Shown here in pieces: positions 12,642-32,000 of a stretch of DNA of 32,000 nt (positions are counted from its first letter, which is position 1; the number at the start of each line of letters is the position of its first letter). The stretch is taken from assembly GCA_963662715.1 (NCBI GenBank), contig OY759724.1, positions 1,470,001 through 1,502,000 on the forward strand, read 5' to 3'. The notes under the pieces are model-generated. The model worked only from the letters and a program-made list of their open reading frames with translations. It made no database searches and was not told the DNA's origin. Position numbers and translations under genes: made by a program. The DNA is from Candidatus Omnitrophota bacterium. Its GTDB lineage: Bacteria; Omnitrophota; Gorgyraeia; Zapsychrales; JANLHA01.

Positions 12642-12647
12642 GATCAA

Positions 12648-13322: not shown

Positions 13323-13327
13323 ACGCG

Positions 13328-14098: not shown

Positions 14099-14178
14099 GG
14101 AAGGCGGAGCTCGCCGGGGAACAGGTCCTGCGGTTCTGAGGGGTGTCAAGAGGGGGAAACGGGGCCAATGGAAATATT

Positions 14179-14538
14179 ATGAATTATTTTTTATACATTC
14201 TTATCGGACTGGTTGCCGGTACTTTCAGCGGTTTTTTCGGGGTAGGCGGGGCGACGATGTTGATCCCGATTTTCGTTCTGATGTTCGGCATGACGCAGCA
14301 TCAGGCGCAGGGGACGACTCTGGCTGTCCTGCTTCCGCCGGTATTTTTATTCGCGGTATTGAAATATTATCAATACGGGCATGTGAAAGTCAAGATGGCC
14401 CTTATGATCTCGTTGGCGTTTTTTGCCGGCGCTTATTTAGGAGCCTGTGCCGTGCAGGGGGTGGAAGATACGGCTTTAAAGAAAGCGTTTGGCGTCTTGT
14501 TGATTCTCATGGGGCTGCGTATGCTGGTGTTTAAATGA
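14179..14538 (+). CDS. Half-size TauE/SafE-family (sulfite exporter-like) membrane protein
   Basis: MNYFLYILIGLVAGTFSGFFGVGGATMLIP is the typical TauE N-terminus. The product is 119 aa with about 4 TM helices. Confidence 0.65.
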   Translation: MNYFLYILIGLVAGTFSGFFGVGGATMLIPIFVLMFGMTQHQAQGTTLAVLLPPVFLFAVLKYYQYGHVKVKMALMISLAFFAGAYLGACAVQGVEDTALKKAFGVLLILMGLRMLVFK

Positions 14539-14602
14539 CGATAAACGTCAGGGAAAGCGACCCCGCGGGCAGATGGAGTAAAATTCATACCAGGAAAAGG
14601 AC

Positions 14603-16266: not shown

Positions 16267-16445
16267 GTCATTATTTATTAATTACATAGTTAAAAAGCGG
16301 AGGGGGGAAACAACCTTATTCATGCTTAGAAAACATGACGGGGCAGGTTTCCCTTTCTTTATTAAACAGGGATTGATCAGCTTGTCTTTGAATAATTAGA
16401 GGAAGGTTTTATATTATTTATTAAAAATTACACCGGAGAAAAGAG

Positions 16446-17069
16446 ATGACAGAACGTGTTCAGGAACTGATAGACAAAATTAAAACTGAGGGCATTCAGG
16501 CTGCTGAAACGCAGGCCAAGGACATTCAGTCTCAGGCGGTTAAAAAATCCGAGGATATTATTGCTCAGGCCAAAAAGGAAGCCGAGAGTATTATGGCCGA
16601 AGCCGAAACGGACCGGCAGAAAATCGAGGAAGCAACCCGGGCCGTGTTAAAGCAAGCCTCCCGGGACATGTTGCTGCGGTTGCGGAAAGACATGCTCAGA
16701 ATGCTGGACGGGCTCGTGACCCGGAGTTTGGGGGAAGCTCTTACTCCGGAAGAACTTTCCTCCCTTATCCAGAAAGTGGCGAGCGCTTATGTTCAAGGCG
16801 ATAAGGGCGCGGATATCACTGCGACTTTAAGTGAAGAAGACCTGAATAAACTGAAGGATGGATTCTTGAAAAAATTGCAGCAGGCTTTAAAACAGCCGCT
16901 TGTTTTAAAGTCCGCGCAGAATATTCGCAAAGGCTTTACGATCAGTTTTGACCAGGGAAAGTCGTGTTTTGATTTTACGGACAAGAGCCTGGCGGAATTT
17001 CTTGGCCAGTATTTAAATGAGCAGGTGGCGCAGATTCTGCAGGAATCATTAGAAAAACAGGATGTGTAA
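16446..17069 (+). CDS. ntpE: V-type ATPase subunit E
   Basis: Charged coiled-coil N-terminus (AAETQAKDIQSQAVKKSEDIIAQAKKEAESIMAEAE) and first position in the V-ATPase operon. Confidence 0.75.
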   Translation: MTERVQELIDKIKTEGIQAAETQAKDIQSQAVKKSEDIIAQAKKEAESIMAEAETDRQKIEEATRAVLKQASRDMLLRLRKDMLRMLDGLVTRSLGEALTPEELSSLIQKVASAYVQGDKGADITATLSEEDLNKLKDGFLKKLQQALKQPLVLKSAQNIRKGFTISFDQGKSCFDFTDKSLAEFLGQYLNEQVAQILQESLEKQDV

Positions 17070-17071
17070 AG

Positions 17072-17608
17072 ATGTATTATTATTTTGCGGCCAGCCTGCC
17101 TTTTCTGGAATTCGGGGTGAAATGCCCGACTTGCCTGGAAAATTTTTTGGAGCAGAGTGAAAGACTGCTGCCGGAGCGGGACCGGAGGCTTATTGAACAG
17201 GCCCTGCTGATCGAAAAAGGGCAGGACATCAAAGCGGAGCACCGGGTCATTGCGGAATGGCAGAATTTTATGCAGGATCTCCGTAACCAATGGGTTTTGG
17301 TCAGGGCCGGTGTGCTCAAAAAAGATCCGTTGTCCTATATGCGGGGAAGCCGGACCGGCCAGGCGGCGGTTGTTGAGGTCATCAACCAGGCCCAGAAAGC
17401 GGAGGACCCGTTGTCCGGAGAAAAATTGATCGACCAGCTGCGGTGGGATAAGCTGGAAGATATCGGGCAGGGACATTTTTTTGATTTGGATTTTTTGCTG
17501 GTCTATGCTTTGAAGCTGCAGATTCTAAAACGGCTGGAGCGCATAGATTCTGTGCACGGGGAACATACCTTTCAAGAATACTGTACAACCGCATCGCGGT
17601 TGAGATAA
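17072..17608 (+). CDS. DUF2764-like V-ATPase accessory protein (subunit C-like position)
   Basis: MYYYFAASLPFLEF start and a position between E and A, as in Bacteroidetes/Chlamydia-type V-ATPase operons. Confidence 0.55.
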   Translation: MYYYFAASLPFLEFGVKCPTCLENFLEQSERLLPERDRRLIEQALLIEKGQDIKAEHRVIAEWQNFMQDLRNQWVLVRAGVLKKDPLSYMRGSRTGQAAVVEVINQAQKAEDPLSGEKLIDQLRWDKLEDIGQGHFFDLDFLLVYALKLQILKRLERIDSVHGEHTFQEYCTTASRLR

Positions 17609-17660
17609 TGGCTGGGATTCGCGGCAGGCAGACTCAGTCATAAGAAACGGAGGATGAAGC

Positions 17661-19418
17661 GTGAGTCGATCAAGAACCGGACAGGTGATAGGGGTCAACG
17701 GGAATATGGTGGCGGTTGCCTTTGCGGACCGGGTTATGCAGAACGAAGTGGCCTATGTCGTGGCAGGGCAGGAGCGTTTGAAGGCGGAGGTTATTCGTGT
17801 TAAGGGTAAACGCGCGGACCTGCAGGTCTTTGAAGACACCCAGGGGATCCGTATTCAGGATACGGTGGAGTTCACCGGGGAACTGCTGAGCGTTGAGCTG
17901 GGGCCGGGGTTGTTGACCCAGGTCTATGACGGGTTGCAGAATCCTCTCCCGGATTTAGCCGAGCAGTATGGTTTTTTTCTGAAACGGGGAGCCTATTTAA
18001 CCGCGCTTGACGATGATTCGACGTGGGAGTTCACCCCGGAGGCCAAAGCCGGGGATAAAGTCCTGGCCGGAGAAAAGCTCGGCGTTGTTCCGGAAAAGGT
18101 TTTCCAGCACTGGATCATGGTCCCTTTCCATCTCCAGGGAGAACTTGAGGTGACAGAGATTGTCGGCAAAGGCACGTATAAAGTCAAGGACACGATCGCC
18201 CGCGTGAAAGACGGACAGGGACAGGTTCATGCCGTAACCATGAAACAGACGTGGCCGGTCAAAGTTCCCATCACGGCGTATGCCCATAAAATCAAACCGA
18301 CACAGCCGCTGGTCACGAAGATCCGCATTATCGATACTCTGGTCCCGGTCGCGGTCGGAGGAACGTTCTGCACTCCGGGGCCTTTCGGCGCCGGCAAAAC
18401 AGTTTTGCAGCATTTGATCAGCCGTCATGCGGACGTGGACATCGTGATCGTCGCGGCCTGCGGGGAACGGGCCGGCGAAGTCGTTGAGCTCCTTAAAGAA
18501 TTCCCGGAACTCAAAGATCCGAAGACCGGGCAGACGCTGATGGACCGCACGATTATTATCTGTAATACCAGTTCCATGCCGGTGGCGGCCCGGGAGTCGA
18601 GCGTATATACAGCCGTGACATTAGCGGAATATTACCGGCAGATGGGAATGAATGTCTTATTGCTGGCGGATTCCACGTCCCGGTGGGCGCAGGCCATGCG
18701 GGAAATGTCCGGACGTCTGGAAGAGATCCCCGGGGAAGAAGCGTTTCCGGCCTACCTGGAAACCCGCATCGCTTCGTTTTATGAGCGCGCGGGCCTGGTT
18801 CAGCTTCATGACGGAAGTATGGGGTCCGTGACGATCGGCGGGTCGGTCTCTCCGGCCGGCGGAAATTTTGAAGAGCCGGTGACCCAGGCGACGCTGAAAG
18901 TCGTCGGCGCGTTTCACGGTTTGTCCCGCGACCGCGCGAACGCCCGCAGGTATCCCTCCATCGACCCTTTGGACAGTTGGAGCAAATACGACAGCTTTAT
19001 TGACGGCGCGAAGGTGCAGAAAGGCGTGGCGATCCTCCGCAAAGCCAGCCATGTCTCCCAGATGATGAAAGTCATCGGGGAGGAAGGGACAACGACGGAA
19101 GAGTTTATCGAGTATTTGAAAGGGGAGTTTTTTGATGCCGTGTATCTGCAGCAGAATGCTTTTGACGAGGTCGACGAAGCGACGCCGGACGAGCGGCAGA
19201 GATATATTTATGATCTGCTCGAGCAGATCATTGACCAGAAATTCAAATTTTCAGACAAAACAACGGCCCGCAGATTCTTTCAGGAACTGAGGCAGAAATT
19301 CATCAACTGGAATTCTGCCGCCTTCCAAAGCGATGAATTCCAGTCCATAGAGAAAAATATCCGGGAACAGTTAACCGCGGATACAAAGACTTTGAACAAA
19401 GAACCAGTCAGAGGTTAA
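17661..19418 (+). CDS. ntpA: V-type ATPase catalytic subunit A
   Basis: GTG start after GGAGGA. Walker [10 protein letters not shown], Walker B LLLADS and the non-homologous insert typical of A subunits. Confidence 0.95.
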
Positions 19419-19422
19419 TACG

Positions 19423-20730
19423 ATGCAAAAAGTTTACAGCCAGATTTTACAGATTGCCGGTGATGTCATTACCGTGGAAGCCGAAGACATCGCCTATGGA
19501 GAGCTTGCCGAAATCCAGACCCGCATGGGAATGTCCCTCGCCCAGGTCATCCGTTTGGACGGGAACAAGGTTTCCCTGCAGGTTTTGGCCGGCAGCCGCG
19601 GCATTTCCACGGACGATAAAGTGCGGTTTTTAAAACATCCGATGCAGGTGTCGTTTTCCGATAACCTGTTAGGCCGGATCTTTAACGGGAGCGGCGTGCC
19701 CCGGGACGGCGGCCCGTCCCTGGACGAGAACATGATCAATATCGGCGGCCCGTCCGTGAACCCTTCCAAACGCATCGTGCCCCGCAATATGATCCGGACC
19801 GGAATCCCGATGATCGATATTTTTAATTCCCTGGTGGAATCGCAGAAACTGCCGATTTTTTCCGTGGCCGGGGAGCCGTATAACCCGCTTCTGGCGAGGA
19901 TCGCTTTGCAGGCGGAAGTGGACATGATTATCCTCGGGGGGATGGGCCTGAAATATGACGACTTCCTTTTTTTCAAGGAGACGCTTGAGCAACACGGGTC
20001 CCTTTCCCGGTCCGTGATGTTCATCCATACGGCGGCCGATCCGACGGTCGAATGCCTGCTTGTCCCGGACATGAGCCTGGCTGTCGCGGAGCAGTTTGCT
20101 TTGACGGGGAAACGGGTGCTGGTGCTCCTGACCGACATGACGAATTTTGCCGACGCCTTGAAAGAGGTGGCCATCACCATGGAGCAGATCCCGTCCAACC
20201 GCGGATATCCGGGGGATTTGTACAGCCAGCTGGCCGCGCGTTATGAAAAAGCCGTGGACTTTGATACGGCCGGCTCCATCACGGTTCTGGCGGTCACGAC
20301 CATGCCGGGAGACGATGTTACCCACCCGGTGCCGGATAATACCGGATACATCACCGAGGGGCAGTTTTATTTGACCGGCGGACGCATTGAGCCTTTCGGA
20401 AGCTTAAGCCGTCTGAAGCAGCAGGTCAACGGCAAGACAAGGGCTGATCACCGGACGATTATGGACCGGATGATCCAGCTGTTTGCCGATTACCGTTCAA
20501 CGCTGGAAAAGAAATCCATGGGATTTGAAATGAGCCCCTGGGATGAAAAGCTGCTGACGTACGGACACCGTTTCGAGAATGAACTTATGGATTTGAGCGT
20601 TAACATTCCGCTGGAAGGGGCTTTGGACCTGGGGTGGCGTATCCTGGCGGATATCTTTGAGCCGGCTGAGACCGGGATAAAAGAATCTTTGCTCAAGGAG
20701 TTCTGGCCCAAAAAAGAGGCCAGTGTTTGA
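19423..20730 (+). CDS. ntpB: V-type ATPase subunit B
   Basis: Alpha/beta-family fold without a P-loop. Motifs include [18 protein letters not shown] and [12 protein letters not shown]. Confidence 0.95.
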
Positions 20731-20861
20731 TCCCCGGGCTCGCCAGGAGGAAAACGCCCGGCTGCGGAACCTGCGGTGAAGCCCTGCTGCCTTCCCGGCA
20801 GGGGAGGCGTTATAAGATAGGATGCACAGGTGTCGTTTAATACCAAATAGATATTTTAGCC

Positions 20862-21500
20862 ATGGGAAAAGTTAAATTAACAAAAGGCGAACTGAAACGC
20901 CAGCGCGACAGCTTGAAGCAGTTCCGGCACTATCTCCCGACGCTGCAGCTTAAGAAACAACAGCTGCAGATGAAAATCCTGGAGATCCGTAAGCTGCTTA
21001 AGGAGAAGGAAGCTTCCCTGGCCAGGCAGAAAGAGGAGATCGGCCGCTGGGTGGGCCTGCTTTCCGATTCTTTGCTGCCGGAGACGGTGGACCTCCGGTC
21101 ATGGCTTATCCCGGATCATCAGGATGTTCTGATCGGCACAATGAATATTGCCGGTGCCGATGTCCCGGTCTTAAAAGAGATTAAGTTTAAGGTCCCGGAT
21201 TATGATTTGTTCGTTGTGCCGTTTTGGGTGGACCGCGGGCTTGCGGATTTAAAGAACTACCTGCACGATTTTATCGAGATAGGGATTATTAAAGAGCAAA
21301 TTCATGTCCTGCAGAAGGAATTGCGGGTGACAACCCAGCGGGTCAACTTATTTGAAAAAGTCAAAATCCCCGAGTGCCTGGAACATATCCGGGTGATCCG
21401 TATTTACCTGGGGGATCAGCAGTCGAACGCCGTCGGGATCAGTAAAGTCGCAAAGAAGAAAATCGAGGCGGCAGCCGAATTGGAAGCCGCCGCGGCGTAA
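20862..21500 (+). CDS. ntpD: V-type ATPase subunit D
   Basis: LTKGELKRQRDSLKQFRHYLPTLQLKKQQLQ coiled-coil N-terminus and operon position. Confidence 0.85.
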   Translation: MGKVKLTKGELKRQRDSLKQFRHYLPTLQLKKQQLQMKILEIRKLLKEKEASLARQKEEIGRWVGLLSDSLLPETVDLRSWLIPDHQDVLIGTMNIAGADVPVLKEIKFKVPDYDLFVVPFWVDRGLADLKNYLHDFIEIGIIKEQIHVLQKELRVTTQRVNLFEKVKIPECLEHIRVIRIYLGDQQSNAVGISKVAKKKIEAAAELEAAAA

Positions 21501-21516
21501 AAGGATAGAGGCCAGA

Positions 21517-23262
21517 ATGATTGTTCCGATGAAAAAAGTTTTTCTGATTGTTCAGAACCGGGATGTTGAGCCTGCGCTCAAACGTTTGCGTGAGCTGGGT
21601 GTCCTGCACGTGGCTCATTTGCGCCTCCCCAAGAGCAGCGGGATTAACCAGCTGAAAGACGATATTAAGCTTTTAGAGCAGGCGGTTAACTATTTGACGC
21701 ATGAACATAAAAACCCTCAGCAAGTCGAGGCGCCGGACTGGAAGGAAACGGCTGATGTTGTTCTCGGCCTGGCGGCGCTGATGGACCGTGACCGGGAAGG
21801 AATTGCCAAGCGCCAGGTGCAGATTGAACAGTGGGAGCCCTGGGGGGATTTCAGCCTGGAAGATATCGAACAGCTGCGCGCCAAAGGACTGAAAGTCGAA
21901 CTTGTGGAAGTCCCGGAGAAAGACGTCTCTTCTGCGCCCGAGGGAGTCATCCTTGCGCCGGTCTTTGTCAAACACAAAATCGCCCGGTGTATGGCCTTGT
22001 CTTATAAAGACGGGGATATCCCCTATAAAATCCTGCCGCTTCCCCATCAGCGGCTGCGTCGGATTAAAGAAGAACAGGGGCGGCTGCGGAAGCGGATCAA
22101 AAAGGCTCATCAGCAGATGTTTGACAACAGCAGGTATCTCGACCATTTGAAAAAAGTTTTGGCCCGGCTGAAAGACGATCTTGACTTTAAAACGGTTTTG
22201 GAAGGGCGGGGCGGGGACAAACAGCTGAGTGTTATCCAGGGGTTTTGTCCGCAGGATTTGACCCCGCAGCTGGAATCATCGGCCAGGACAGAACAATGGG
22301 GTGTTCTGTTTGAAGACCCGAAGGAAGAAGACCAGGTGCCGACTTTGTTGAGAAATCCCAAATGGGTGGAGACGGTGAACCCCTTGTTTGATTTGACAAA
22401 CATCATCCCCGGATACCGGGAGCTGGATGTCAGCCCGTTCTTCCTGGTGTTTTTTTCTTTGTTCGTCGGGATTTTAATCGGCGATGCCGGGTACGGCACG
22501 CTGATATTGCTGGCGGCGGTTTTTTTCCGGCATAAACTCAGGAAAAAGAATCAGGAGACAGACAAGGTGAAGCTGGCTTTCCGGCTGGGGTTTTTGCTGT
22601 GCGGGTGTGTGATCGCGTGGGGCGTGTTGACCGGCACGTATTTCGGGCAAGCCTGGCTGACCGGAAAGATTAAACCTTTGATTCCCTGGTTAACAAATGA
22701 AAAGAATGTTCAGCTTGTATGCTTTATCATCGGAGGCGTGCACCTGAGCATCGCGCACGGCTGGCGTGCCGTTTTAAAAATGCCCCGGCTACACTTTCTT
22801 TCCGATGTCGGATGGATATTATTCATATGGGGGATGTTTTTCTGGGTTAAGTTTTTTGTGCTTGGCAGCAGCCTGCCTTCTTTTGCTAACTGGCTGGCAG
22901 GGGCGGGCATGGTGCTGGTTTTATTCATGACTTGTCCTAACAGGAATCCGTTGATTTCTTTGCGGGATCTCGGTGTGAACATCGTATTTGATTTTATCAG
23001 TACTTTTACAGATATTATTTCTTATATACGCCTTTTTGCTGTGGGACTGGCGACGGTGGCGGTGGCAGACGCCGCCAATTCCATGGGGCCTGTATGGATT
23101 ATTATTTTATACACCGTGAATATCATTTTGGCTGTTCTGGCTTTGGTGGTGCACGGCATACGGTTAAATACATTAGAGTTTTCCACGCATTTGGGATTGC
23201 AGTGGGCCGGGTTTGAATACAGCCCTTTTAAAAAGAAAAATTTTTTGAAAAAGTCCGTTTAA
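21517..23262 (+). CDS. ntpI: V-type ATPase subunit I (a-subunit, stator/ion channel)
   Basis: About 300 aa soluble N-terminal half, then multiple TM helices including the conserved R in ISYIRLFAVGLA. Confidence 0.85.
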   Translation: MIVPMKKVFLIVQNRDVEPALKRLRELGVLHVAHLRLPKSSGINQLKDDIKLLEQAVNYLTHEHKNPQQVEAPDWKETADVVLGLAALMDRDREGIAKRQVQIEQWEPWGDFSLEDIEQLRAKGLKVELVEVPEKDVSSAPEGVILAPVFVKHKIARCMALSYKDGDIPYKILPLPHQRLRRIKEEQGRLRKRIKKAHQQMFDNSRYLDHLKKVLARLKDDLDFKTVLEGRGGDKQLSVIQGFCPQDLTPQLESSARTEQWGVLFEDPKEEDQVPTLLRNPKWVETVNPLFDLTNIIPGYRELDVSPFFLVFFSLFVGILIGDAGYGTLILLAAVFFRHKLRKKNQETDKVKLAFRLGFLLCGCVIAWGVLTGTYFGQAWLTGKIKPLIPWLTNEKNVQLVCFIIGGVHLSIAHGWRAVLKMPRLHFLSDVGWILFIWGMFFWVKFFVLGSSLPSFANWLAGAGMVLVLFMTCPNRNPLISLRDLGVNIVFDFISTFTDIISYIRLFAVGLATVAVADAANSMGPVWIIILYTVNIILAVLALVVHGIRLNTLEFSTHLGLQWAGFEYSPFKKKNFLKKSV

Positions 23263-23275
23263 TAAGGAGAAGAAA

Positions 23276-23722
23276 ATGGAACAAACTTTTTTGACGCAAT
23301 TAAGTGACCTGGGTGTGGCAGCAGCGGTGTCCATGGCGGCCATGGGGTCTGCTTTGGGGACCGGGGTCGCGGGGATGTCGGCTGTGGGGGCCTGGAAAAA
23401 ATGTTTTGCGCAAAGTAAAACTGCTCCGTTTATGCTGGTGGCTTTTGTCGGCGCGCCTTTGTCACAAACGATTTACGGTATGATCCTTATGGGCAAAATC
23501 GCCACAGCCGCGCAAGCCGGACAGTATTATTGGAGTATCGGCCTCTTGGGCGGCGCGGCCATGGGAATGTCGGCCTGGATGCAGGGGAAGGCAGGAGCGG
23601 GTGCGGCAGACGCTTTAGCTGAGACAGGTAAAGGGTTCACGAATTATATGATGGTTCTGGGGATCATCGAAACCGTGGCCCTGTTTGTCATGGTCTTTTT
23701 GCTGGGGAAGGTCGGAGCGTAA
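23276..23722 (+). CDS. ntpK: V-type ATPase proteolipid subunit K (double-hairpin c subunit)
   Basis: 148 aa with four Gly/Ala-rich TM helices and a single carboxylate in helix 4 (GIIETVALF). Confidence 0.85.
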   Translation: MEQTFLTQLSDLGVAAAVSMAAMGSALGTGVAGMSAVGAWKKCFAQSKTAPFMLVAFVGAPLSQTIYGMILMGKIATAAQAGQYYWSIGLLGGAAMGMSAWMQGKAGAGAADALAETGKGFTNYMMVLGIIETVALFVMVFLLGKVGA

Positions 23723-23751
23723 GACCTTTTGAAAGAAGACAATAAGCTTTA

Positions 23752-23780
23752 TTGACAGATTGTTTGCCATGTTGTATTAT
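23752..23780 (+). promoter_or_regulatory. sigma70-type promoter for the tRNA-Val/tRNA-Asp pair
   Basis: TTGACA (23752-23757), 17 nt, then TATTAT (23775-23780), 13 nt before the tRNA. Confidence 0.55.
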
Positions 23781-23793
23781 GACAGCACTTTAG

Positions 23794-23870
23794 GGGCGAT
23801 TAGCTCAGCTGGTTAGAGCGTCTGACTTACATTCAGGAGGTCGAGGGTTCGATCCCTTCATCGCCCACCA
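23794..23870 (+). tRNA. tRNA-Val (anticodon UAC), CCA encoded
   Basis: Acceptor GGGCGAT/ATCGCCC and D arm GCTC..GAGC. The anticodon stem TCTGA/TCAGG closes the loop CTTACAT. The T arm is GAGGG-TTCGATC-CCTTC, followed by ACCA. Confidence 0.92.
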
Positions 23871-23932
23871 AAATTTTGCTTTACAAAAAACTTATTACAT
23901 AATAAACTTATACTTTCCCAAAAGAATATTTT

Positions 23933-24010
23933 GGGCCCGTGGTGTAGCTTGGTTAACATATCTGACTGTCGATCAGAAGACCGCGAGTTCAAATCTCGTC
24001 GGGCCCGCCA
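23933..24010 (+). tRNA. tRNA-Asp (anticodon GUC), CCA encoded
   Basis: Acceptor GGGCCCG/CGGGCCC and D stem GTGT/ACAT. The anticodon stem TCTGA/TCAGA closes the loop CTGTCGA. The T arm is GCGAG-TTCAAAT-CTCGT, followed by GCCA. Confidence 0.92.
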
Positions 24011-24016
24011 AATAGC

Positions 24017-24050
24017 AAAAAGGACTTCCCCAGAAGGGGAAGTCCTTTTT
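24017..24050. terminator. Bidirectional intrinsic terminator
   Basis: AAAA-AGGACTTCCCC-agaa-GGGGAAGTCCT-TTTT: a perfect 11-bp stem flanked by an A-run and a T-run. Confidence 0.8.
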
Positions 24051-24059
24051 GCATGTAAG

Positions 24060-24361
24060 CCGTGCTTGACAGTTTGAACTCGTATCCTGCGAAGCAGGAC
24101 GGGTTCGATTACGGGTTACCTTAAATAATAATTTAGGGAAAGCCGGAATCCAGGATGCCGCGAAGCGGCACCGCCAATCGAGTCGGGGACCTTATCTGAC
24201 AGGTCCACAGTTTGATTTGCCAGCGAAGCTACGGGTTTGATTGCGGCTTGCCGCAACACATAAGGTGCAGGGTTGATCCATAGCATACCGAAGCACCTTG
24301 TTTCAATATGATCCCCCGTAATCAATATCCCTCCTTTTACCACGAGGCAGGAGGGCTTTTT
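24060..24361 (+). ncRNA. Candidate structured non-coding RNA or repeat-hairpin element of unknown class
   Basis: No credible ORF. There are at least 7 hairpins, including three GCGAAGC-centred ones (24089, 24160, 24223) and a CUUG-loop hairpin (24240-24255). It ends in CCCTCCT..AGGAGGG plus CTTTTT (24329-24361). Strand and ends are uncertain. Confidence 0.35.
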
Positions 24362-24502
24362 CTTGTCCCTTCATTTGTCCCCAATACCCCTTTTTGCGCC
24401 ACGAAAATCCACGCTCTGGCACGGGAACATTTCAAGAGCGCTTGTAATGCAAAAAAATCGTATTTATGTGAAAAAAGGTCAGTTTTTGGGCGTATCGGGC
24501 TA

Positions 24503-24531
24503 TTGACAGAGCGAAAAAGAAGGATGATACT
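24503..24531 (+). promoter_or_regulatory. Possible sigma70 promoter at the core/island boundary
   Basis: TTGACA (24503-24508), 17 nt, then GATACT (24526-24531). Confidence 0.3.
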
Positions 24532-24685
24532 GTGTAGATGATGTCTTATAGTTATAAAGTGTCGATGTGATAATAAAAAATGTAGAAAGAAAAGATAAAA
24601 TTAAAACCTAACAACTACAGCGGCGTCTTTCGCCACCTTCGACAGGCTACGCGTATCCCCGAGTCCTGTTGCGTTAGATAAAACA

Positions 24686-24781
24686 ATGGTAGAAAAAATT
24701 ATATTTACATTATTAAGTACCGTCATTGCATTATTAGCTACAACTATAATACAATATATACATAAACAGCTAACAACTTAA
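24686..24781 (+). CDS. Hypothetical 31-aa hydrophobic peptide (MVEKIIFTLLSTVIALLATTIIQYIHKQLTT)
   Basis: An ATG..TAA ORF read by hand, below the ORF-track cutoff. It has one predicted TM helix, no clear SD, and follows a GC-rich hairpin patch at 24616-24678. Confidence 0.2.
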   Translation: MVEKIIFTLLSTVIALLATTIIQYIHKQLTT

Positions 24782-24882
24782 TTCATCTTAAGGAATCATA
24801 TCCTCAAAGACAGATTGAAGATTTTTCGGTGATAATTGACCTAATATTTTATTAATCGTTACTTACAGTTTAGCGAGGTGTT

Positions 24883-27582
24883 ATGCCAATAAATGATTCA
24901 TTACTAAACCGGCTTTATTCATCAGCAGCTTTGAATACGGATGATTTTAAGCTTTTAAGAAAGCCCAACAATCATCCTTATGCAGCCATTTTTCGACAGA
25001 ATTTTTTTAGTCCAGATTCATGGCGTCAGTCAATTCTGCGAAAATTGAAGGATCGAATTCAATTCTCTAAGGGCGGTGCTTTCTTGGTTAGTGGTTATCG
25101 GGGCACAGGGAAAAGTACCTTTTTGAATTATTTGCTTTATGAGTTGGAACCTAATGATAATAATCCGTCTGATCAGGAAAAGGGAAAGGAAACAATAAAA
25201 TTCATTTCAGCAACCATCAACTTAAGTAGTTTTTCTTTTGAAAATTTAAAGTACGATCTTATTAATTTGATTGCTATTCAATTAGAAGACATGTGGCCAG
25301 AGGGGCAAGATAGAAGGTCGTTAAAATCCCTTCAAGAAGCACTTTTTTTTGCGCAGAGTAAAAGTGATACTAGAAAAGAGCTCAATCGACTGAATATAAC
25401 GCCGAATCTAGAGTTCCTTTCTTTGAAAGTTGGTGGAGAAGTTGAAAGAGAAAAGGTCTCGGAAGCTGTATTGGTTTCTTCGTTAAAGGATAATTTGTAT
25501 TACGTTGAAAAATTGCTTAAGGAGGCTTTGAAAGACTTAAGTTTGGCCAATAAAAGGCTGATTTTTGTTTTGGACGAATTAGACAAACTCCCTCTTTTTA
25601 CTCGTGAATCTGAAATGGTTCGTTCAGGGGATTCGGCGGTAAAGGATGAACAACCCCGCTACACGGATTATATGGATCCAAGAAATATACGATCATTACT
25701 CGAGATGCTTTCGAATTTGAAGAATATATTTTTTGAAAGTGGTGTTATTTTTATCCTTGTCGTTAATAAGAATGTTTTTGATGTCCTAAAATCTAATTCA
25801 AGTCATGAAGATCTTCTGATTCATTTAATAACTGATGCCGTCTATATCCCATGCTACAGGAAAAATGAAATGAGGCTTTCTACTCTTTTTCCAGTTAAAG
25901 TACTTACTTCTAATAGGCATGAACATAAGAGCATATTAGAAAACTTTGAACTTTGTCTCTATTATGAATGCTCTGGGAATTTGCGTGTCTTTTTCCAGAT
26001 TCTCGCTAAGAAAATTAAAGATAAGGAATTAGTTATCACAGCTAATGAAGCGCATTATTTGAAGCAAAAGGTAAAGATATATGAGTTGAATGAACTTATT
26101 TATAACTATGTGTACGATGATGACCCGTCCGCATTCTCCCGCCTTTATGAATTTTTCACAAGAATATATAATTGGATGTTGTCTCGCCCAGAGAATAATG
26201 CTGCTATAACCGAAGAATCTTTCGGTTGGGAGGACGGGTGCCGTTGGGGGAAAATAATTTCTAGCTATTGTCGAGGCTTTGATAATAAACAAGATGAAGT
26301 TACCCGAAATTTAGAAGGATTTTGGCAAGAAGGAGTTGCGTTTAATAACTTTGAAGCTTTATTTACAATACTCAAAGAGAACGATCTTCTTGATAATTTT
26401 CCTGCAACAAATTATCTGATTCGTCGTCTTACTGATTTTAGCAAAATTATTGATGAAAAACGCTTTTTAACTATTGAGCGAGTTGTTCGCAACATGGATT
26501 TTCAAGAGTTTGAGTTTTCTGACACAATTGGCCGGTATCTTATTTATGTGTTGATTCCTTTAAATATAGCAATTCTTTACAACAATGGTGTGTTGGATAT
26601 AAAAAATAATTATCTCCAGTACACATATAGTCATACGCCGCGCCTACCGGAGTATCATTCTGGTTACGAATATGAACTTAAAGGTGACCTTCGGGGCGCC
26701 TTTGATCTGTACACAAAATATATTGCAGATAACCCTACTGATCTGGAGGCGCATAGGAAAAAGTTAACTGCTCTCTATTACATGTTAAAGTTTGGATTTT
26801 ATGACCCAGGAATTGATATTTTCTTGCACTGGGGTGATAGTGTTCAAAAGATGCTTCAAAATAATGTTTTGAATAGTCGCAGGGAAAAACCTTATTTAAG
26901 TTGCATTTTGTTTTTTCAATATCTTCTAAATCAATTTCAGAGATGGGAAAAAGAGACCAATAAAGACAATAAAAATAAAAGTTTTGAAAAAGATAATTTT
27001 GATGTGTTAGAAAAAATGGAGATGTGTTCTGCTGATTTAGGGGCAAGAGTCGAACCTAAAATATGGCATTTTTTCTTTTTGTATTGGACGAGAAATTATT
27101 TTGCTGCCTTTAATGTATTGAATAATGTTGTACGTGAGCAAAGAGACCCATTTCTATTTCTTTTAAATGGATTTATTTTAACACAGATAGGTTTTTATGA
27201 ACGAGCTTGGGAAAATATAAGAAAAGGCATGGAATGTCCCGGGAATTGGTTTATTCAAACACTGACACTGGTCGGGTTGTGGTCCTTAATTTGTAATTTA
27301 CGTGACAATACTGAGGCTCATAATTTTTTGCTTCATCTTAGAGGAGATCCTTGCATTGAAAATTTTGTCCGAAACATCGGCCGACCAGAGAAGCCTCTTT
27401 TAACTGAGTGCAGAGCTATGGCAGATATCTTGATTTTTTTGAATAAGCCTAAAGATGAAGTTCAATATTTCATCGGTCAACAAGAAATGATTCAAAGAAA
27501 ATTTCAGGGTTCTGCAAAATATGCGCAATTTGAGAGAATATATCAACACTTCCTTGCCCGAGTTGTAGGGCGGCTTGGATGA
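24883..27582 (+). CDS. Large P-loop (AAA+/STAND-like) NTPase with a helical, TPR-like C-terminal region and no recognisable effector domain
   Basis: 899-aa ORF in AT-rich DNA with a GAGG RBS. Walker A GYRGTGKST (aa 71-79), Walker B LIFVLDELD (aa 226-234), ILVVNKN, and a sensor-2-like CSGNLRVFF. TPR-like segment YELKGDLRGAFDLYTKYIADNPTDLEAH. Confidence 0.8.
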   Translation: MPINDSLLNRLYSSAALNTDDFKLLRKPNNHPYAAIFRQNFFSPDSWRQSILRKLKDRIQFSKGGAFLVSGYRGTGKSTFLNYLLYELEPNDNNPSDQEKGKETIKFISATINLSSFSFENLKYDLINLIAIQLEDMWPEGQDRRSLKSLQEALFFAQSKSDTRKELNRLNITPNLEFLSLKVGGEVEREKVSEAVLVSSLKDNLYYVEKLLKEALKDLSLANKRLIFVLDELDKLPLFTRESEMVRSGDSAVKDEQPRYTDYMDPRNIRSLLEMLSNLKNIFFESGVIFILVVNKNVFDVLKSNSSHEDLLIHLITDAVYIPCYRKNEMRLSTLFPVKVLTSNRHEHKSILENFELCLYYECSGNLRVFFQILAKKIKDKELVITANEAHYLKQKVKIYELNELIYNYVYDDDPSAFSRLYEFFTRIYNWMLSRPENNAAITEESFGWEDGCRWGKIISSYCRGFDNKQDEVTRNLEGFWQEGVAFNNFEALFTILKENDLLDNFPATNYLIRRLTDFSKIIDEKRFLTIERVVRNMDFQEFEFSDTIGRYLIYVLIPLNIAILYNNGVLDIKNNYLQYTYSHTPRLPEYHSGYEYELKGDLRGAFDLYTKYIADNPTDLEAHRKKLTALYYMLKFGFYDPGIDIFLHWGDSVQKMLQNNVLNSRREKPYLSCILFFQYLLNQFQRWEKETNKDNKNKSFEKDNFDVLEKMEMCSADLGARVEPKIWHFFFLYWTRNYFAAFNVLNNVVREQRDPFLFLLNGFILTQIGFYERAWENIRKGMECPGNWFIQTLTLVGLWSLICNLRDNTEAHNFLLHLRGDPCIENFVRNIGRPEKPLLTECRAMADILIFLNKPKDEVQYFIGQQEMIQRKFQGSAKYAQFERIYQHFLARVVGRLG

Positions 27583-27601
27583 GAGGAGGAAATTAATTGA
27601 T

Positions 27602-29569
27602 ATGCGTGAACGTCGGCTAAAATCGTTAGAGGAATTCATTGCAACAAAAAATGCTTTAATTTGTCTGTATTATGGAGAAAGCAATCAAGGAAAATCAGCT
27701 TTTGTCCGAGACTTTCTTCTTGAGAAAAGAAACGTTTATCAAGTGTGTGAAATTTGTGCAAGCCATGACCAACCCAACATGGTTATTGAACATTTAAGTA
27801 GCATCTTGAATCTTTTGCTTAACAAATCAGACTTAGAAGATTTTGGTAAATATAAAAACCATGTGGATAATTTAAATTTTATAATTCTCGATATAAGAAG
27901 GCTGTTTTACCAAGGAAGCTTAAAGAAAAAGATAGTTTTTTTGATTGATAACGCAGAAACGATTTTTTCGCTTCATCATTGCTTGGGTTCTGACTCTTGG
28001 CAACAGCATGTCATGGAACAGTGGGAGGTTTTTCTCCAGAAACTGACAGAGTTAAATTGTGAAGAATTCGATGTGAGAATTGTTCTCATCGCGAATAAAG
28101 ATATTTTGGAACTTACTCGTTTAAGACCGTATTTGGTTAGAGTCGAGCATTCTAAAGAAAAAATTAGTGATGAATCGAGGAAAGTAGTAATACGTCTTCA
28201 TGAAATCCAAGAAGCCTCTGATAAAGGCGAAAAAATTAATTGTGATGATGGCGATAAAGATCGTCTTGTAAAAAGCGGAAATGCCGAAGTTGTCTTAAGA
28301 TTGACCCCTGATATAAAAGAATTTATGGCAAAGAAGAAAAACGAGTTGATCGAAAATATTAAAAATATTGCAAGTATGAAAGAACAAGAAATAACAACTG
28401 ATGATAATTTGGAATTTATACGAGGAACCTATGAATTTTTTCATTTTATACAAGTGTTAGAGAAGATGAGCTCAGAAGAAAGATACAAAAAAGTCGTTCC
28501 TGATTGTTATGATTGTCTTTGCGAAATCCTGTGTACACCGAAAACAGAGTCGCATTGTTCAGACATCGGAGATACTTTACGGCAGTACGGTTATGGCAAG
28601 CTGTTGTTGAGTATGATTTGTGGCTGTCAACAATATGTTAAGAAATCGCCGAACAACAAAAACAATCGGATGAGGTTAAAAATTTTAGAGGGAAATGTGC
28701 TTTATTATGAGAATGATTATGTTAAAGCCTTAAAGTGTTATTCTGCTGTGACGTCAAATACTAAAATGGGCTTTTTGGCTAAATACGAAATTGTTCGGAC
28801 CCTGCATCAGTTAAATGAACAACGATGGTGGGATGTTTTGTCTGAACAAGAAATAATTTCCCTGCAAGAGATACTTGAGAAATTAAACAAAAAATATAAC
28901 GGCGATTCTAATCAGGAAAAATTCTTTTTGCTTTATAATAATAAATTTGATGATTCCCAAAAAGCTGCATTACTTTTGCCGTTAATGAAGAAAATGATAA
29001 GCCAAATGAAGGAGAAATCTGATTTGAAAAATATTATTTCTCAAGAGAGGATCGATGCAGCTAAAACGATATATTTAAAGAGTGAAAACAAATTGGAAGA
29101 AATAAAAAGCGTTTGTGAAGATTTTCAATTGTTTAAGGACTACAAAAATTCTTATTGGCGAGACTATATTTTTTTTCACCAGATTGACTTGTTTTGTAAT
29201 CTTTTTGAAAAGCAACAAGAAGAAATTTTTGGTTGGTGCAAAAAAATTCGGAATAATCAAAGTAATCAAGAAAAATTATGGGAGTCTCTTTTAAAAAAGG
29301 TGAAAATCTTGATAGAAAAGACTGAAAAGGATTCACAAGCCGGGCTAGGTGATAAAATTTGGCGTGATGCTAAATATGGTGATTTGTATAGTAGGATATC
29401 CTTGATTAAATGGAAGAAAGAAGCGGAATTGGATAAGGCTGAATTGCCCCAAGTTATAAAAAAGGCTGAAGAATCCGCAGCTAAATATCGTGTTTTAGGT
29501 CATAATCAAAAAGCTGAACGGGTCCTTAATCAAATAAGTCAATTAATGCAAGTTCAAGCAACTTTGTAA
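27602..29569 (+). CDS. Second P-loop (AAA+/STAND-like) NTPase with a Lys/Glu-rich helical, TPR-like C-terminus
   Basis: Walker A GESNQGKS (aa 25-32 from ATG 27602), Walker B IVFLIDNAE and IVLIANKD. TPR-like LEGNVLYYENDYVKALKCYSAV. GAGGAGG at 27583-27589 spans the upstream stop. The alternative TTG start at 27575 would overlap ORF1 by 8 nt. Confidence 0.78.
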   Translation: MRERRLKSLEEFIATKNALICLYYGESNQGKSAFVRDFLLEKRNVYQVCEICASHDQPNMVIEHLSSILNLLLNKSDLEDFGKYKNHVDNLNFIILDIRRLFYQGSLKKKIVFLIDNAETIFSLHHCLGSDSWQQHVMEQWEVFLQKLTELNCEEFDVRIVLIANKDILELTRLRPYLVRVEHSKEKISDESRKVVIRLHEIQEASDKGEKINCDDGDKDRLVKSGNAEVVLRLTPDIKEFMAKKKNELIENIKNIASMKEQEITTDDNLEFIRGTYEFFHFIQVLEKMSSEERYKKVVPDCYDCLCEILCTPKTESHCSDIGDTLRQYGYGKLLLSMICGCQQYVKKSPNNKNNRMRLKILEGNVLYYENDYVKALKCYSAVTSNTKMGFLAKYEIVRTLHQLNEQRWWDVLSEQEIISLQEILEKLNKKYNGDSNQEKFFLLYNNKFDDSQKAALLLPLMKKMISQMKEKSDLKNIISQERIDAAKTIYLKSENKLEEIKSVCEDFQLFKDYKNSYWRDYIFFHQIDLFCNLFEKQQEEIFGWCKKIRNNQSNQEKLWESLLKKVKILIEKTEKDSQAGLGDKIWRDAKYGDLYSRISLIKWKKEAELDKAELPQVIKKAEESAAKYRVLGHNQKAERVLNQISQLMQVQATL

Positions 29570-29633
29570 AAACATTTGTTCTTTCGGTGTATTTTCCAGT
29601 TATATCTGTTTATAAAATATTCGTGAAAAATTT

Positions 29634-29661
29634 AGCAATATGTCAAAAAGAGTCAGCTGAT
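29634..29661. repeat. Copy 1 of the AGCAATATGTCAA(N5)GTCAGCTGAT motif, with a partial third copy AGCAATTGTCAG at 29671-29682
   Basis: 13-nt exact plus 9/10-nt match to 31672-31694. Confidence 0.7.
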
Positions 29662-30037
29662 AACAAGTTAAGCAATTGTCAGAAATTTAATTTGTGATAC
29701 TATAAAATTCTAGCTTACATTTATTCTGTCATTCATGGTTTATTAAATAAAATTTTTAAGAAACTGTTTAATATTTTTTTGTTTATTTTGTTTGTTTCCC
29801 CTAATATAAATCCTTCCATAGGGGCAACTGATGACTTTGCTGTTGTGACTTTATAGTTCAGTATATTAGAAAGCATATCAGACCAAGGCAGGGGAAATGT
29901 TGAATTAATTATATGCGAACGTCGAGCAAAAGATAAACAAAATTATAAAGAAGGTTTAAAAATTTTAAAAGAATGTGAGAGGTCCAGTGGCATAATATGT
30001 AAGATTAAAAAAAGTAAAAATTTTTATTATCGCGAAA

Positions 30038-30061
30038 AAACCACGGCCATGAGGCCGTGGA
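30038..30061 (+). repeat. IS200 left-end hairpin
   Basis: AAACCACGGCC-atga-GGCCGTGGA, perfect 8-bp stem. Confidence 0.8.
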
Positions 30062-30105
30062 TGAAGCGTTTCCGAGGTCTTGGTTGCGTATGATACAATG
30101 GGTGC

Positions 30106-30534
30106 ATGAGATATTTGAAGCAAGGACACACAGTTTACTATGCCAGATACCATATTGTCATTTGTACAAGATATAGGCGAAAGATATTGCGATGGGGTTC
30201 GGCGGAGTATGTCAAAAGATGCGTTTTGGGAGTGATGAGACGGTATCCTGAGATCATCATTGAAAAAGTAAATACAGATTTAGATCATATGCATCTTTTG
30301 GCATCAATTCCGCCGAAGATGGCTGTAAGTCATGCAGTAAATCTGATTAAGAGTAACACAGCAAAGCTGATGAGGCGGCGATATAAGTTTTTAGACAAGA
30401 TGTATGTGAAAAAGGCAGGGATATGGTCAGCAGGGTATTTTGTGTCAACGGTTGGAGCCGACGAAGAATCGATAAAGCGATACATCGAATATCAAGGCCG
30501 GGAAGACCGAGGACAAACGCAGATAGAATTTTAG
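30106..30534 (+). CDS. tnpA: IS200/IS605-family Y1 (HUH) transposase TnpA
   Basis: YHIVICTRYRRKIL, HUH motif LDHMHLL and a catalytic Tyr region ESIKRYIEYQ, 142 aa. Confidence 0.9.
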   Translation: MRYLKQGHTVYYARYHIVICTRYRRKILRWGSAEYVKRCVLGVMRRYPEIIIEKVNTDLDHMHLLASIPPKMAVSHAVNLIKSNTAKLMRRRYKFLDKMYVKKAGIWSAGYFVSTVGADEESIKRYIEYQGREDRGQTQIEF

Positions 30535-30562
30535 CTGCGTTTGCACAGTCAAAATAGTTAAG

Positions 30563-30586
30563 AAACCACGGCCGTGAGGCCGTGGA
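30563..30586 (+). repeat. IS200 right-end hairpin
   Basis: AAACCACGGCC-gtga-GGCCGTGGA, 23/24 identical to the left-end copy. Confidence 0.8.
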
Positions 30587-30667
30587 GTTTCATTCAACTC
30601 GTATTAGATCCCAATATTATTGTTCGCAGGCAAATTGTGTTTTTAAATAACTAAAAATGGAGGAATT

Positions 30668-31432
30668 ATGAAAATATATTTCTATCTTTCTTTAACTCCT
30701 GAATCTTTTATCGCTTCTATGCTACCGCCCATGGATTTTGGTTCTTATTTAGCCGTCGGAACACAAAAACGTGCCAGTGGCCAGGTTATATTTTTTGAGA
30801 TAGAAGAACCAACGAATGATTCAAGTTTCAACTTGGATAATATTAAGAGCCGCTGTATTAATCATTCAAACGGAGAACCAAAACATTCGGTATATGGATC
30901 ATGTTATCGTGTCCTTGAAAAAATACCTTTGAGTGACATTAAAGATCTTTATCTAGTTACTCGAGATGGAAAACCTTTGTGTCTTCAGCAAAGCGAGATA
31001 CTTCCTGAAGTTTCTCAGAATTATTATTTATATCAAGAAATTTGTCCCGTGCATCCAAGTGTTGTTAGCACTTTAAATCCTTTGGAATTCAGTAAATATC
31101 TTACTGACGGGAGTCAAAATATTTATTTTCCTAAGATTTGTTTTGTTGATTTGCACCTTGGTGAGTTGCGTGAAGACCCAAAATTTGGAGAAGTACGTAA
31201 TCTGCCATATCAAAATGTAGAACATCTGCGAGATTGTCTCATTCAGCTTAAAAATAATCCAAAGAAATCCACTACAACAGTTGATCGTATTAGTTCACAG
31301 TCATTTCCATTTCGCACTATAGAGAACGGAATTTTTCTCGGGAGCAAGGAAAATCTCCTGTTCTATCCTTTTCCATCCAAAAAAGATCTTCAGGGCAAGT
31401 ATTATGATTGGTGGCGCTCTGCCTCTATGTGA
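30668..31432 (+). CDS. Hypothetical protein, 254 aa, no recognised domain
   Basis: TGGAGGA RBS 4 nt before the ATG. A long ORF in stop-codon-rich AT-rich DNA, with soluble-looking composition (MKIYFYLSLTPESFIASMLPPMDFGSYLAVG...YYDWWRSASM). Confidence 0.7.
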   Translation: MKIYFYLSLTPESFIASMLPPMDFGSYLAVGTQKRASGQVIFFEIEEPTNDSSFNLDNIKSRCINHSNGEPKHSVYGSCYRVLEKIPLSDIKDLYLVTRDGKPLCLQQSEILPEVSQNYYLYQEICPVHPSVVSTLNPLEFSKYLTDGSQNIYFPKICFVDLHLGELREDPKFGEVRNLPYQNVEHLRDCLIQLKNNPKKSTTTVDRISSQSFPFRTIENGIFLGSKENLLFYPFPSKKDLQGKYYDWWRSASM

Positions 31433-31671
31433 GGGAGAAGAAGACAAGGGAGTATCTCCCGAAAAATAGTACCAGTTGAAAGTTGGTATTGAGTGTACTA
31501 TTCTCCCCGGTTATTAAAAAATTTTCCTTTCAGAATATTCAAAAACACACCCTAATTCAAGGACATATCTCTTTTACCCTACTTTTTGTGACGCTAAATG
31601 TTATTTAAAAATTTTTAAGGACAAATTAGGTTGCTTTGAAAAATTTTTTTGCATGCATAACAAAAAGTGTC

Positions 31672-31694
31672 AGCAATATGTCAAGTCAGCCGAT
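31672..31694. repeat. Copy 2 of the AGCAATATGTCAA-GTCAGCCGAT motif
   Basis: Matches copy 1 at 29634-29661 and contains TGTCA pentamers 11 nt apart (31668 and 31679). Confidence 0.7.
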
Positions 31695-31968
31695 TGTAAT
31701 ATTTCGTAAATAATGGATAATACAACCATGCTTTGAAAATAATAGCGTAATCAAGATCTGTTTTGATGGAGGAAATATTTTTTGTGTTTTCGCATGAATT
31801 TTTTAAGGTTTAGGCAAATGACCTATCTATTTTCTTGTTTTGTTCAATAAAAATTGACTTTTAAGACGTATTTTTGCAAAATTTCATCAAATTACTTTAC
31901 CAGCTTTATTTCTTTGAGTTGTTTTAAATATTAAATAAATTACCTAATTACAACAGGGGAGTCATGGA

Positions 31969-32000
31969 ATGATGAAGAAAAGGCCGTTTTTTTATGCAAC
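31969..32000 (+). CDS. Start of an unidentified gene (MMKKRPFFYA...), truncated by the window end
   Basis: GGGGAG lies 7 nt upstream of ATG 31969, and the frame is open to the window end. Only 10 codons are visible. Confidence 0.3.
   Translation, partial: MMKKRPFFYA

Follow-up and report, generated by a model that had tools for sequence, protein, structure and literature searches.

The last 7.5 kb of a 32,000-bp window of contig OY759724.1 (positions 1,470,001 to 1,502,000, Candidatus Omnitrophota; all coordinates below are those of this window) do not resemble the DNA before them. A block that begins at 24.45–24.54 kb and reaches at least 32.0 kb is foreign in base composition and codon usage. 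The best explanation is that this block is horizontally acquired AT-rich DNA in a variable locus flanking a tRNA-Val/tRNA-Asp pair, a reading that we regard as probable. The block carries two adjacent genes, designated A and B, an insertion sequence of the IS200 group, and a third gene, C. A and B recur side by side at other loci (designated by L numbers), and the pair looks like a rare mobile cassette with ~10 representatives among 1.84 billion proteins. The proposed history is that the block would have been built around this cassette and that the IS200 element would have been inserted later, between B and C.

The left border: composition switch and synteny break

The guanine plus cytosine (GC) content in 1-kb windows was 0.44–0.58 over positions 1–24500 and 0.30–0.39 over 24501–32000. 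A single-change-point likelihood fit placed the best switch at 24442 (GC 0.499 before it and 0.343 after it; log-likelihood ratio 287), and in 100-bp bins the GC content was 0.47–0.52 over 24001–24400 and down to 0.24–0.45 from 24501, which puts the switch 430–530 bp downstream of tRNA-Asp. It was still 0.33 at the window end, and the AT-rich block therefore reaches at least position 32000. Codon usage changes along with composition. The GC content at third codon positions (GC3) was 0.39–0.71 (mostly 0.5–0.7) in the 22 upstream open reading frames (ORFs) that were scored, and 0.31, 0.31, 0.27 and 0.43 in A, B, C and tnpA, respectively. Relative synonymous codon usage (RSCU) correlated at r = 0.88 between two halves of the native gene set and at r = –0.02 between the native genes and A+B+C. 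Composition-normalised tetranucleotide frequencies correlated at r = 0.87–0.94 among native 7.5-kb segments and at r = 0.66–0.71 between native DNA and the AT-rich block. The summed fraction of K, N, I, F and Y residues was 0.29–0.33 in the proteins of the AT-rich genes and 0.17–0.28 in those of the native genes. Intergenic lengths in the block were 342 bp (24541–24882), 536 bp (29570–30105, which includes the left end of the IS200 element) and 532 bp (31433–31964). An earlier note on this DNA had placed a switch in GC content and coding style near 24540, some 500 bp after the tRNA pair, had described spacers of 340–570 bp and proteins rich in Lys, Asn, Ile and Phe beyond it, and had proposed sliding GC and tetranucleotide profiles as a check; both profiles were run and both show the shift, and the measurements agree with that description on each count.

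The genes upstream of the switch, among them pyrD, pyrF and an operon for subunits A, B, D, I and K of a V/A-type ATPase, are housekeeping genes, a point on which the same note was right, and the tRNA-Val/tRNA-Asp pair closes this conserved block of pyrimidine-biosynthesis and V/A-ATPase genes. The gene order was compared with that of a single relative, L001, a contig of an uncultured Planctomycetales metagenome-assembled genome (MAG) with 63% amino-acid identity in V-ATPase subunit I. When a closer genome was sought, the genome collection gave L001 only, and the metagenome collection yielded a 39% relative and an 82% fragment of 1 kb that stops inside the ATPase gene, but no closer locus that extends downstream. 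The features around the left border are as follows.

23794-23870, + strand: tRNA-Val (anticodon TAC), found by ARAGORN and by Rfam (tRNA, 68.3 bits); syntenic with L001
23933-24010, + strand: tRNA-Asp (anticodon GTC), found by ARAGORN and Rfam; the last feature collinear with L001
24015-24052, + strand: perfect 17-bp inverted repeat with a 4-nt loop, followed by a T run (repeat search and terminator scan)
24055-24345, + strand: GC-normal (~0.50) structured non-coding stretch (RNA fold z-score; no Rfam or Pfam match)
24442-24540, no strand: composition break, the left edge of the AT-rich DNA (maximum-likelihood change point and 100-bp profile)

In a blastn comparison, window positions 12014–24020 were collinear with L001 positions 534–12500 at 67–75% identity, and the alignment ended 10 bases past tRNA-Asp. 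L001 has the same tRNA-Val/tRNA-Asp pair, and its tRNA-Asp sequence is the same as that of the window when compared by eye. Past tRNA-Asp, L001 continues with ordinary genes at a GC content of 0.45–0.52 (a pyridine-nucleotide-disulfide oxidoreductase, a TPR protein, a response regulator, a GNAT acetyltransferase and a radical-SAM enzyme), and tblastx in both directions detected nothing common to the downstream regions of L001 and the window. Because collinearity stops on the 3' side of tRNA-Asp, the tRNA pair is the synteny breakpoint. This break, judged from aligned sequences, supports a variable, acquired locus.

Between tRNA-Asp and the AT-rich DNA lies the GC-normal stretch listed above. 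The hairpin at 24015–24052 is likely the terminator of the tRNA transcript. The sequence behind it, 24055–24345, is strongly structured on the + strand (fold z = –4.81, none of 200 shuffles as good; –2.06 on the – strand) and contains perfect 6-bp hairpins with GAA triloops at 24085–24099 and 24156–24170. Two CGAAG/GAAG hairpin-like sites were also seen there. A search against Rfam returned no family at E ≤ 1 for this stretch, and its short ORFs had no match in Pfam. It is not alignable with L001, where the corresponding sequence shows no structure (z = 0.03). Candidate identities are a small RNA specific to the lineage, a repetitive extragenic palindromic (REP)-like element, or a left end of the acquired DNA with normal GC content; if the stretch is native, the AT-rich DNA was not inserted in the tRNA. 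It was also considered as a part of the A+B cassette and rejected, since the spacers upstream of A in L002 and L005 are only ~100–130 bp long. A promoter-like site, TTGACA-N17-GATACT, was noticed at 24503–24531 (+ strand), exactly at the composition boundary and directed towards A, ~350 nt before the A start. It has 10 of 12 matches to a sigma-70-like promoter in the promoter scan, in which promoter-like sites in the region were no more numerous than expected by chance.

Several points weigh against reading the block as an acquired island. The window shows only the left border, on which the term 'island' rests; the right one lies further along the contig. The sequence 24020–24440 has native-like GC content yet is absent from L001, which makes the position of the left junction ambiguous by ~500 bp. 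The synteny test rests on one distant relative (63% identity), and presence/absence polymorphism was thus weakly tested; rearrangement since the divergence from L001 could also have given the break without a recent insertion. Domain scans of the ORFs of at least 40 amino acids in 24011–32000 (Pfam, NCBIfam and PHROG) detected no integrase or recombinase, the Y1 transposase of the IS200 element being the only hit, and no second copy of the last 24–25 nt of tRNA-Asp or tRNA-Val was found in the window at up to 3 mismatches. Similarly, short ORFs of the junction and the spacers had no Pfam match that would mark an integrase remnant, and no exact word longer than 11 nt is common to 23790–24600 and 24600–32000.

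Because no integrase and no att-like repeats were found, and because the AT-rich DNA does not abut the tRNA but is separated from it by 430–530 bp of GC-normal DNA, we think it more likely that the DNA entered a hotspot beside the tRNA, by insertion or recombination, than that an integrase placed it in the tRNA gene. The rival model, a classical integrative island put into the 3' end of tRNA-Asp by a tyrosine or serine integrase, with that integrase and attR beyond position 32000 and with 24020–24540 as its GC-normal left end, would account for the end of L001 collinearity 10 bases past tRNA-Asp, for the lack of 24020–24540 itself in L001, and for a foreign composition that continues to the window end with a mobile element inside. 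We nevertheless consider it unlikely. The tRNA-proximal end, which is the place of the integrase in most tRNA islands, carries none here; between the junction and the block there is neither a copy of the 3' end of tRNA-Asp or tRNA-Val (≤3 mismatches) nor any shared repeat of at least 12 nt; and in the six other loci A+B occurs with no tRNA within the 5.8–18.6 kb retrieved around it (L014 was not scanned) and with no integrase Pfam family in the called genes around it, so that the cassette appears independent of this route. The earlier note had interpreted the region as a genomic island at a tRNA hotspot. The foreign block at a synteny break, with its IS200 element, stands, and its observation that neither an integrase nor a tRNA-derived repeat is visible within the window was borne out by the domain scans and repeat searches; integration into the tRNA is not supported, in view of the missing integrase and repeat and of the GC-normal gap. 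In the comparison with relatives that it had proposed, the block was absent from L001, but with a sole and distant relative this was a weak test.

Genes A and B, a recurrent pair

The preferred reading, acquisition at a tRNA-flanking hotspot, is further informed by the first two genes of the block.

24883-27582, + strand: gene A, 899 amino acids, a KAP/AAA_16/STAND-like P-loop NTPase with a C-terminal TPR-like array (Pfam, PDB profile and Foldseek searches)
27575-29569, + strand: gene B, 664 amino acids, TTG start at 27575, homologous to the gene directly after every A homologue examined

A matched Pfam KAP_NTPase over residues 62–236 (E = 6.1e-7, 29.4 bits against a cut-off of 20); its AAA_16 and AAA_22 matches were below threshold, and nSTAND_NTPase5 reached only 0.087. 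Its motifs are a Walker A (GYRGTGKS, 71–78), a Walker B (VLDELDK, 229–235) and GN(L/P)R (365–368), followed by helical domains. Across 10 family representatives at ~30% identity, the Walker A (G71–K77), the Walker B (D231–K235) and GN(P/L)R (N366, R368) are invariant, and from this conservation we infer that A is an active, catalytically intact NTPase. An A-family profile searched against the PDB matched TPR proteins (E = 4e-10, positions ~690–776), and the sole non-TPR sequence match was RdrA (1.6e-4), over the Walker A only. The AlphaFold model of A, made from 4 sequences, is weak (predicted local distance difference test score, pLDDT, 57.9); Foldseek with this model returned RdrA of RADAR (2.1e-4), SAMD9, ORC/Cdc6, NLRP9, and TPR subunits of APC/C and the BBSome. 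This architecture is in keeping with an NTPase of the STAND or ORC type that precedes an array of helical repeats. Kyte-Doolittle hydropathy of A showed one borderline window (1.69 at 553–571), outside the NTPase domain, compared with 2.6 for V-ATPase subunit K as a control, and two inserts within the NTPase domain are hydrophilic and predicted to be disordered. The A homologue P0002 from Omnitrophica (L002, 8001–10889) was observed to carry a ~70-amino-acid N-terminal extension with a strongly hydrophobic, transmembrane-like segment; this type of extension is missing from the window A and from the other homologues.

A is rare. A word-indexed search of 5.8 billion proteins found three homologues (31–34% identity), and an exhaustive profile search found ~10 full-length members among 1.84 billion representatives. 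Beyond these ~10, E-values drop to 1e-24 and worse, and the matches are TPR-only or NTPase-only.

The N-terminal domain of B is P-loop-like (GESNQGKS, IDNAE), and its C-terminal part is helical and contains a TPR-like motif; B has weak Pfam matches to AAA_22, ATPase_2 and TPR_2. A database version of the protein (P0007) has 655 amino acids, implying an alternative ATG start at 27602. The word-index search for B homologues found only B itself. A B homologue is nevertheless encoded directly 3' of A in 7 of 7 loci (L002, L005, L011, L013, L014, L015 and the window), with all pairwise E-values ≤ 5.5e-9 and an A–B spacing of –14 to +15 nt. The Walker A of B is intact in three of these (the window, L002 and L005), degenerate in two (L011 and L014) and deleted in two (L013 and L015), and other motifs of B are invariant (NMVIE, QW, LCxP, GY, RxKxLxGNxxYY...AL and WRxA). 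We infer from these alignments that B is probably a non-catalytic partner derived from a P-loop protein, with its own P-loop decaying. A and B were also considered as clear paralogues, which was rejected: hhalign gave E = 3.6e-4 and a probability of 37% over the P-loop domain only, and BLASTP gave nothing convincing.

The genes neighbouring A+B are unrelated in every locus. Since the flanking genes thus differ from locus to locus, A+B is a self-contained cassette. A three-gene module A+B+C was examined and rejected, because the genes after B in L011 and L013 are homologous neither to C nor to one another, and L002 and L005 have other genes there. GC contents of the cassette and of its flanks were as follows.

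Window: cassette 0.344, flank 0.499
L015: cassette 0.272, flank 0.462
L011: cassette 0.389, flank 0.527
L005: cassette 0.543, flank 0.623
L002: cassette 0.417, flank 0.422
L013: cassette 0.33, flank 0.33

A+B is therefore much more AT-rich than its flanks in 4 of the 6 loci with enough flanking sequence (L014, with a flank of 460 bp, was not judged). The AT-rich islets have sharp boundaries and extend over 6400–13600 in L011, where the islet is bounded on both sides, over 8001–13112 in L015, and over 5401–10772 in L005. This repeated AT deviation in hosts of differing GC content indicates a cassette moving horizontally from low-GC donors. In the metagenomic locus L013 (2096–5550, 18437–18622), A+B was seen among genes for a Y1 transposase, HigB/HTH, a DDE transposase, PemK and TerB. 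Such a density of mobile and toxin-antitoxin genes is a context typical of defence islands.

These islets also bear on the possibility of an assembly chimera, in which planctomycete DNA of ~50% GC would have been joined near 24.4–24.5 kb to that of an organism of ~34% GC. The switch is abrupt and native GC content is not regained within 7.5 kb; the closest homologues of C and of A+B lie on low-GC contigs (L007 0.38, L013 0.33, L002 0.42); and conserved tRNA genes, such as the tRNA-Asp that looks the same in L001, can seed false joins. However, the switch lies 430–530 bp past the tRNA with no repeat at the junction, the contig is a single 3.36-Mb sequence (3,360,633 bp), and the sign of the GC skew is unchanged across the junction. 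Moreover, A+B forms AT-rich islets bounded on two sides in the higher-GC contigs L011 and L015, so an islet of this kind is what is expected in a host of 50% GC. We judge a chimera very improbable.

By analogy, the architecture, rarity, mobility and AT-richness of A+B suggest a role in defence or conflict, which we consider possible, though it falls short of being probable. Searches with Pfam, NCBIfam, PADLOC and PDB profiles found no known effector domain in A or B. If the analogy with STAND NTPases holds, A would sense a ligand through its TPR-like array, would then bind or hydrolyse NTP and oligomerise, and would act through or with B as a non-catalytic adaptor or effector; the setting would be a conflict system, for example anti-phage or anti-mobile-element defence. 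The fuller proposal, that A and B are an undescribed two-protein STAND-type conflict system in which an intact NTPase–TPR sensor, A, is obligately coupled to B, which has no known effector, is offered tentatively, as a rather doubtful one. Against both it must be set that nothing ties A+B directly to defence. PADLOC gave nothing significant for A or B (the best match was mad8 at 1.5e-4, over the P-loop only), and neither protein had a match in PHROG or among plasmid, phage or IMG/VR sequences; tblastn of A against plasmids and blastn of 24011–32000 against plasmids and phages returned no match. The Foldseek matches of A come from a poor model (pLDDT 57.9) and have low template modelling (TM) scores (0.11–0.23). 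Finally, in most of the NTPase-only relatives of A an AAA_16 domain is joined to Ser/Thr kinase and FHA domains, and a regulatory role fits equally well.

IS200, gene C and the spacer motif

The remainder of the block contains the IS200 element, gene C, two copies of a motif in the spacers and the start of a further ORF.

29634-29662, + strand: spacer motif AGCAATATGTCAA-N5-GTCAGCTGAT (repeat search and direct reading)
30035-30586, + strand: complete minimal IS200 of ~0.55 kb (transposase profiles and subterminal hairpins; exact ends inferred)
30106-30534, + strand: tnpA, 142 amino acids, with the HUH motif HMH and a C-terminal Tyr (Y1_Tnp, PF01797, E = 1.6e-28)
30668-31432, + strand: gene C, 254 amino acids, a conserved family (836 homologues at E ≤ 1e-3)
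31433-32000, + strand: AT-rich spacer and start of a further ORF, with the second motif copy inside; GC content 0.33

The IS200 element reported in the AT-rich DNA by the earlier note was recovered by profile searches: in addition to the Y1_Tnp match, tnpA matched the NF033573 equivalog model (E = 2.6e-32, 111.7 bits against a cut-off of 55) and a PHROG transposase (7.5e-33). The element sits in the spacer between B and C. Its hairpins at 30041–30060 and 30566–30585 are near-identical, have one orientation and lie within a 27-nt direct repeat of 93% identity. Among the best matches listed, tnpA has 41–47% identity to annotated tnpA of plasmid IS200/IS1541. The IS200 of L013 was considered as possible kin and rejected, the two being unrelated beyond the family level.

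C belongs to a family of at least 836 members at E ≤ 1e-3, with 50–65% identity among the best matches listed. These include MAGs annotated as Spirochaetes (57–58%), Phycisphaerae, Brocadiia and other Planctomycetota (51–53%), and also Anaerohalosphaera lusitana; the closest listed homologue (65%) comes from a contig of ~38% GC. C had no match in Pfam, NCBIfam, PADLOC or PHROG, and its family has neither a Pfam nor an NCBIfam model. It had no relatives in IMG/VR, where an exact 39-nt pattern from its 3' end was likewise not found. Its AlphaFold model, from a 50-sequence alignment, is confident (pLDDT 91.7, predicted TM score 0.90), yet comparison of its fold with the PDB (best E = 0.35) and with BFVD gave no match; a PDB sequence-profile search also returned nothing. 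On the strength of this model, the C family may have a fold so far absent from the PDB. A weak and non-significant likeness of C to ADP-ribosyltransferase-type toxins (TreX and PltA, probability ≤ 0.3) was noticed. The neighbours of C homologues are not conserved, their chromosomal contexts being unrelated, and the GC content of the homologues relative to that of their neighbours was 0.43 against 0.38 in L007 and 0.57 against 0.52 in L008. The window C has a GC content of 0.36 and a GC3 of 0.27, 14 points under the native GC content, and is most likely a xenologous copy brought in with the AT-rich block.

With A, B and C so described, the statement of the earlier note that every ORF of the block except TnpA lacks a recognisable function does not hold, since A passes the KAP_NTPase threshold and has TPRs, B is P-loop-like, and C falls in a large conserved family. 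Its phrase 'uncharacterised cargo' is likewise too strong for A and overlooks the family of at least 836 members to which C belongs.

The spacer motif occurs once in each long AT-rich spacer, as AGCAATATGTCAA...GTCAGCYGAT, upstream of C (ahead of the IS200 insertion) and upstream of the ORF that starts with an ATG at 31969 (MMKKRPFFYA...) and continues past the window end. The second copy lies at 31672–31695; the 5-nt insertion is present only in the first copy. No occurrence of the motif was found in the 13 other loci searched. One possibility is that it serves the acquired genes as a common operator or promoter element.

The features of A and C also allow the block to be considered as a native ancestral region that became AT-rich by local mutation or selection (low expression, silencing or DNA structure), with A+B as a cellular signalling NTPase pair. 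The C family is common in Planctomycetota, the proteins closest to A in the NTPase domain are signalling proteins of the kinase/FHA type, and the IS200 transposase is the sole mobility gene. In contrast, a 16-point drop in GC content, a ~30-point drop in GC3 and an uncorrelated RSCU far exceed the expression-linked variation among the native genes scored. A+B is missing at the L001 locus, has ~10 representatives in unrelated contexts and deviates from the host GC content in four loci; and among the best matches listed the window C is nearer to homologues annotated as Spirochaetes (57–58%) than to named Planctomycetota (51–53%). A native origin therefore seems to us hardly credible, and we retain the reading of the block as horizontally acquired DNA.

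Upstream, in the native part of the window, a PyrR-binding RNA element was found at 6269–6379 (+ strand; Rfam RF00515, 57.1 bits), ahead of the pyrimidine-biosynthesis genes; it is ordinary and native.

Likeness to known systems

As an island, the block is routine: one more compositionally foreign block in a tRNA-flanking variable locus, seen incompletely. It resembles tRNA-associated islands in its deviant GC content and codon usage, in the synteny break beside the tRNA, in its IS element, and in cargo that is missing from the relative. It differs from them in that the 8 kb seen contain neither an integrase nor a tRNA-derived direct repeat, in the GC-normal gap of 430–530 bp, and in that one border is visible. 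The mobile element within it is not unusual either. Like other members of the IS200 group of the IS200/IS605 family, it has tnpA only, with a Y1 HUH transposase, same-orientation subterminal hairpins and no terminal inverted repeats, and its ~0.55 kb suits a minimal IS200. The C family (at least 836 members in Planctomycetota, Spirochaetota and others), with a confident model and no annotation or structural relative, is a reasonable target for structural and functional work.

A shares with KAP NTPases (PF07693) a match above the gathering threshold with Walker A and Walker B, and its homologues P0129, P0132 and P0133 match this family as well. In contrast to KAP NTPases, A has no transmembrane helices within its P-loop domain, which are the hallmark of the family. 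The RADAR system (the ATPase RdrA + the adenosine deaminase RdrB; PDB 8hr8; PMC9994260) is likewise a two-gene system led by a large ATPase, and its RdrA was the best Foldseek match of A. The TM-scores to RdrA were, however, 0.17–0.23 on the low-confidence A model, and the B family has no match to a deaminase or any other catalytic domain. RdrA is not known to carry a TPR array.

The likeness to Avs/AVAST and to STAND/NLR-like sensors (PMC13581612, PMC12931631) concerns both architecture and distribution. In A, a NOD-like P-loop module combines an invariant Walker A with an extended acidic Walker B (DELD) and with GNxR in the helical domain behind it, and the C-terminus is a TPR-like array. 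The occurrence of A is rare and patchy, and A is horizontally mobile and richer in AT than its hosts. When A was examined for the STAND NOD, the motifs were found conserved, the nSTAND_NTPase5 (0.087) and AAA_16 matches were below threshold, and the model was too poor for the domain fold; a C-terminal repeat sensor of the STAND type is present as the TPR match (4e-10, positions ~690–776). A differs from these sensors in its N-terminus, a conserved helical stretch of ~60 amino acids with no recognisable effector, and in being always paired with B. A fused effector of the nuclease, protease, TIR or SIR2 type was not found in A or B by Pfam, NCBIfam, PADLOC or PDB profile searches, and A matched no Avs model of PADLOC. 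If A+B were indeed a conflict system, this would imply a new effector or adaptor mechanism, carried by an AT-rich unit that travels between distant phyla. A+B is thus a compact and clearly delimited candidate for a new module of defence or conflict, strictly co-inherited and with a STAND-like architecture lacking a known effector, and in its pairing it is loosely comparable to the sensor/helper NLR pairs.

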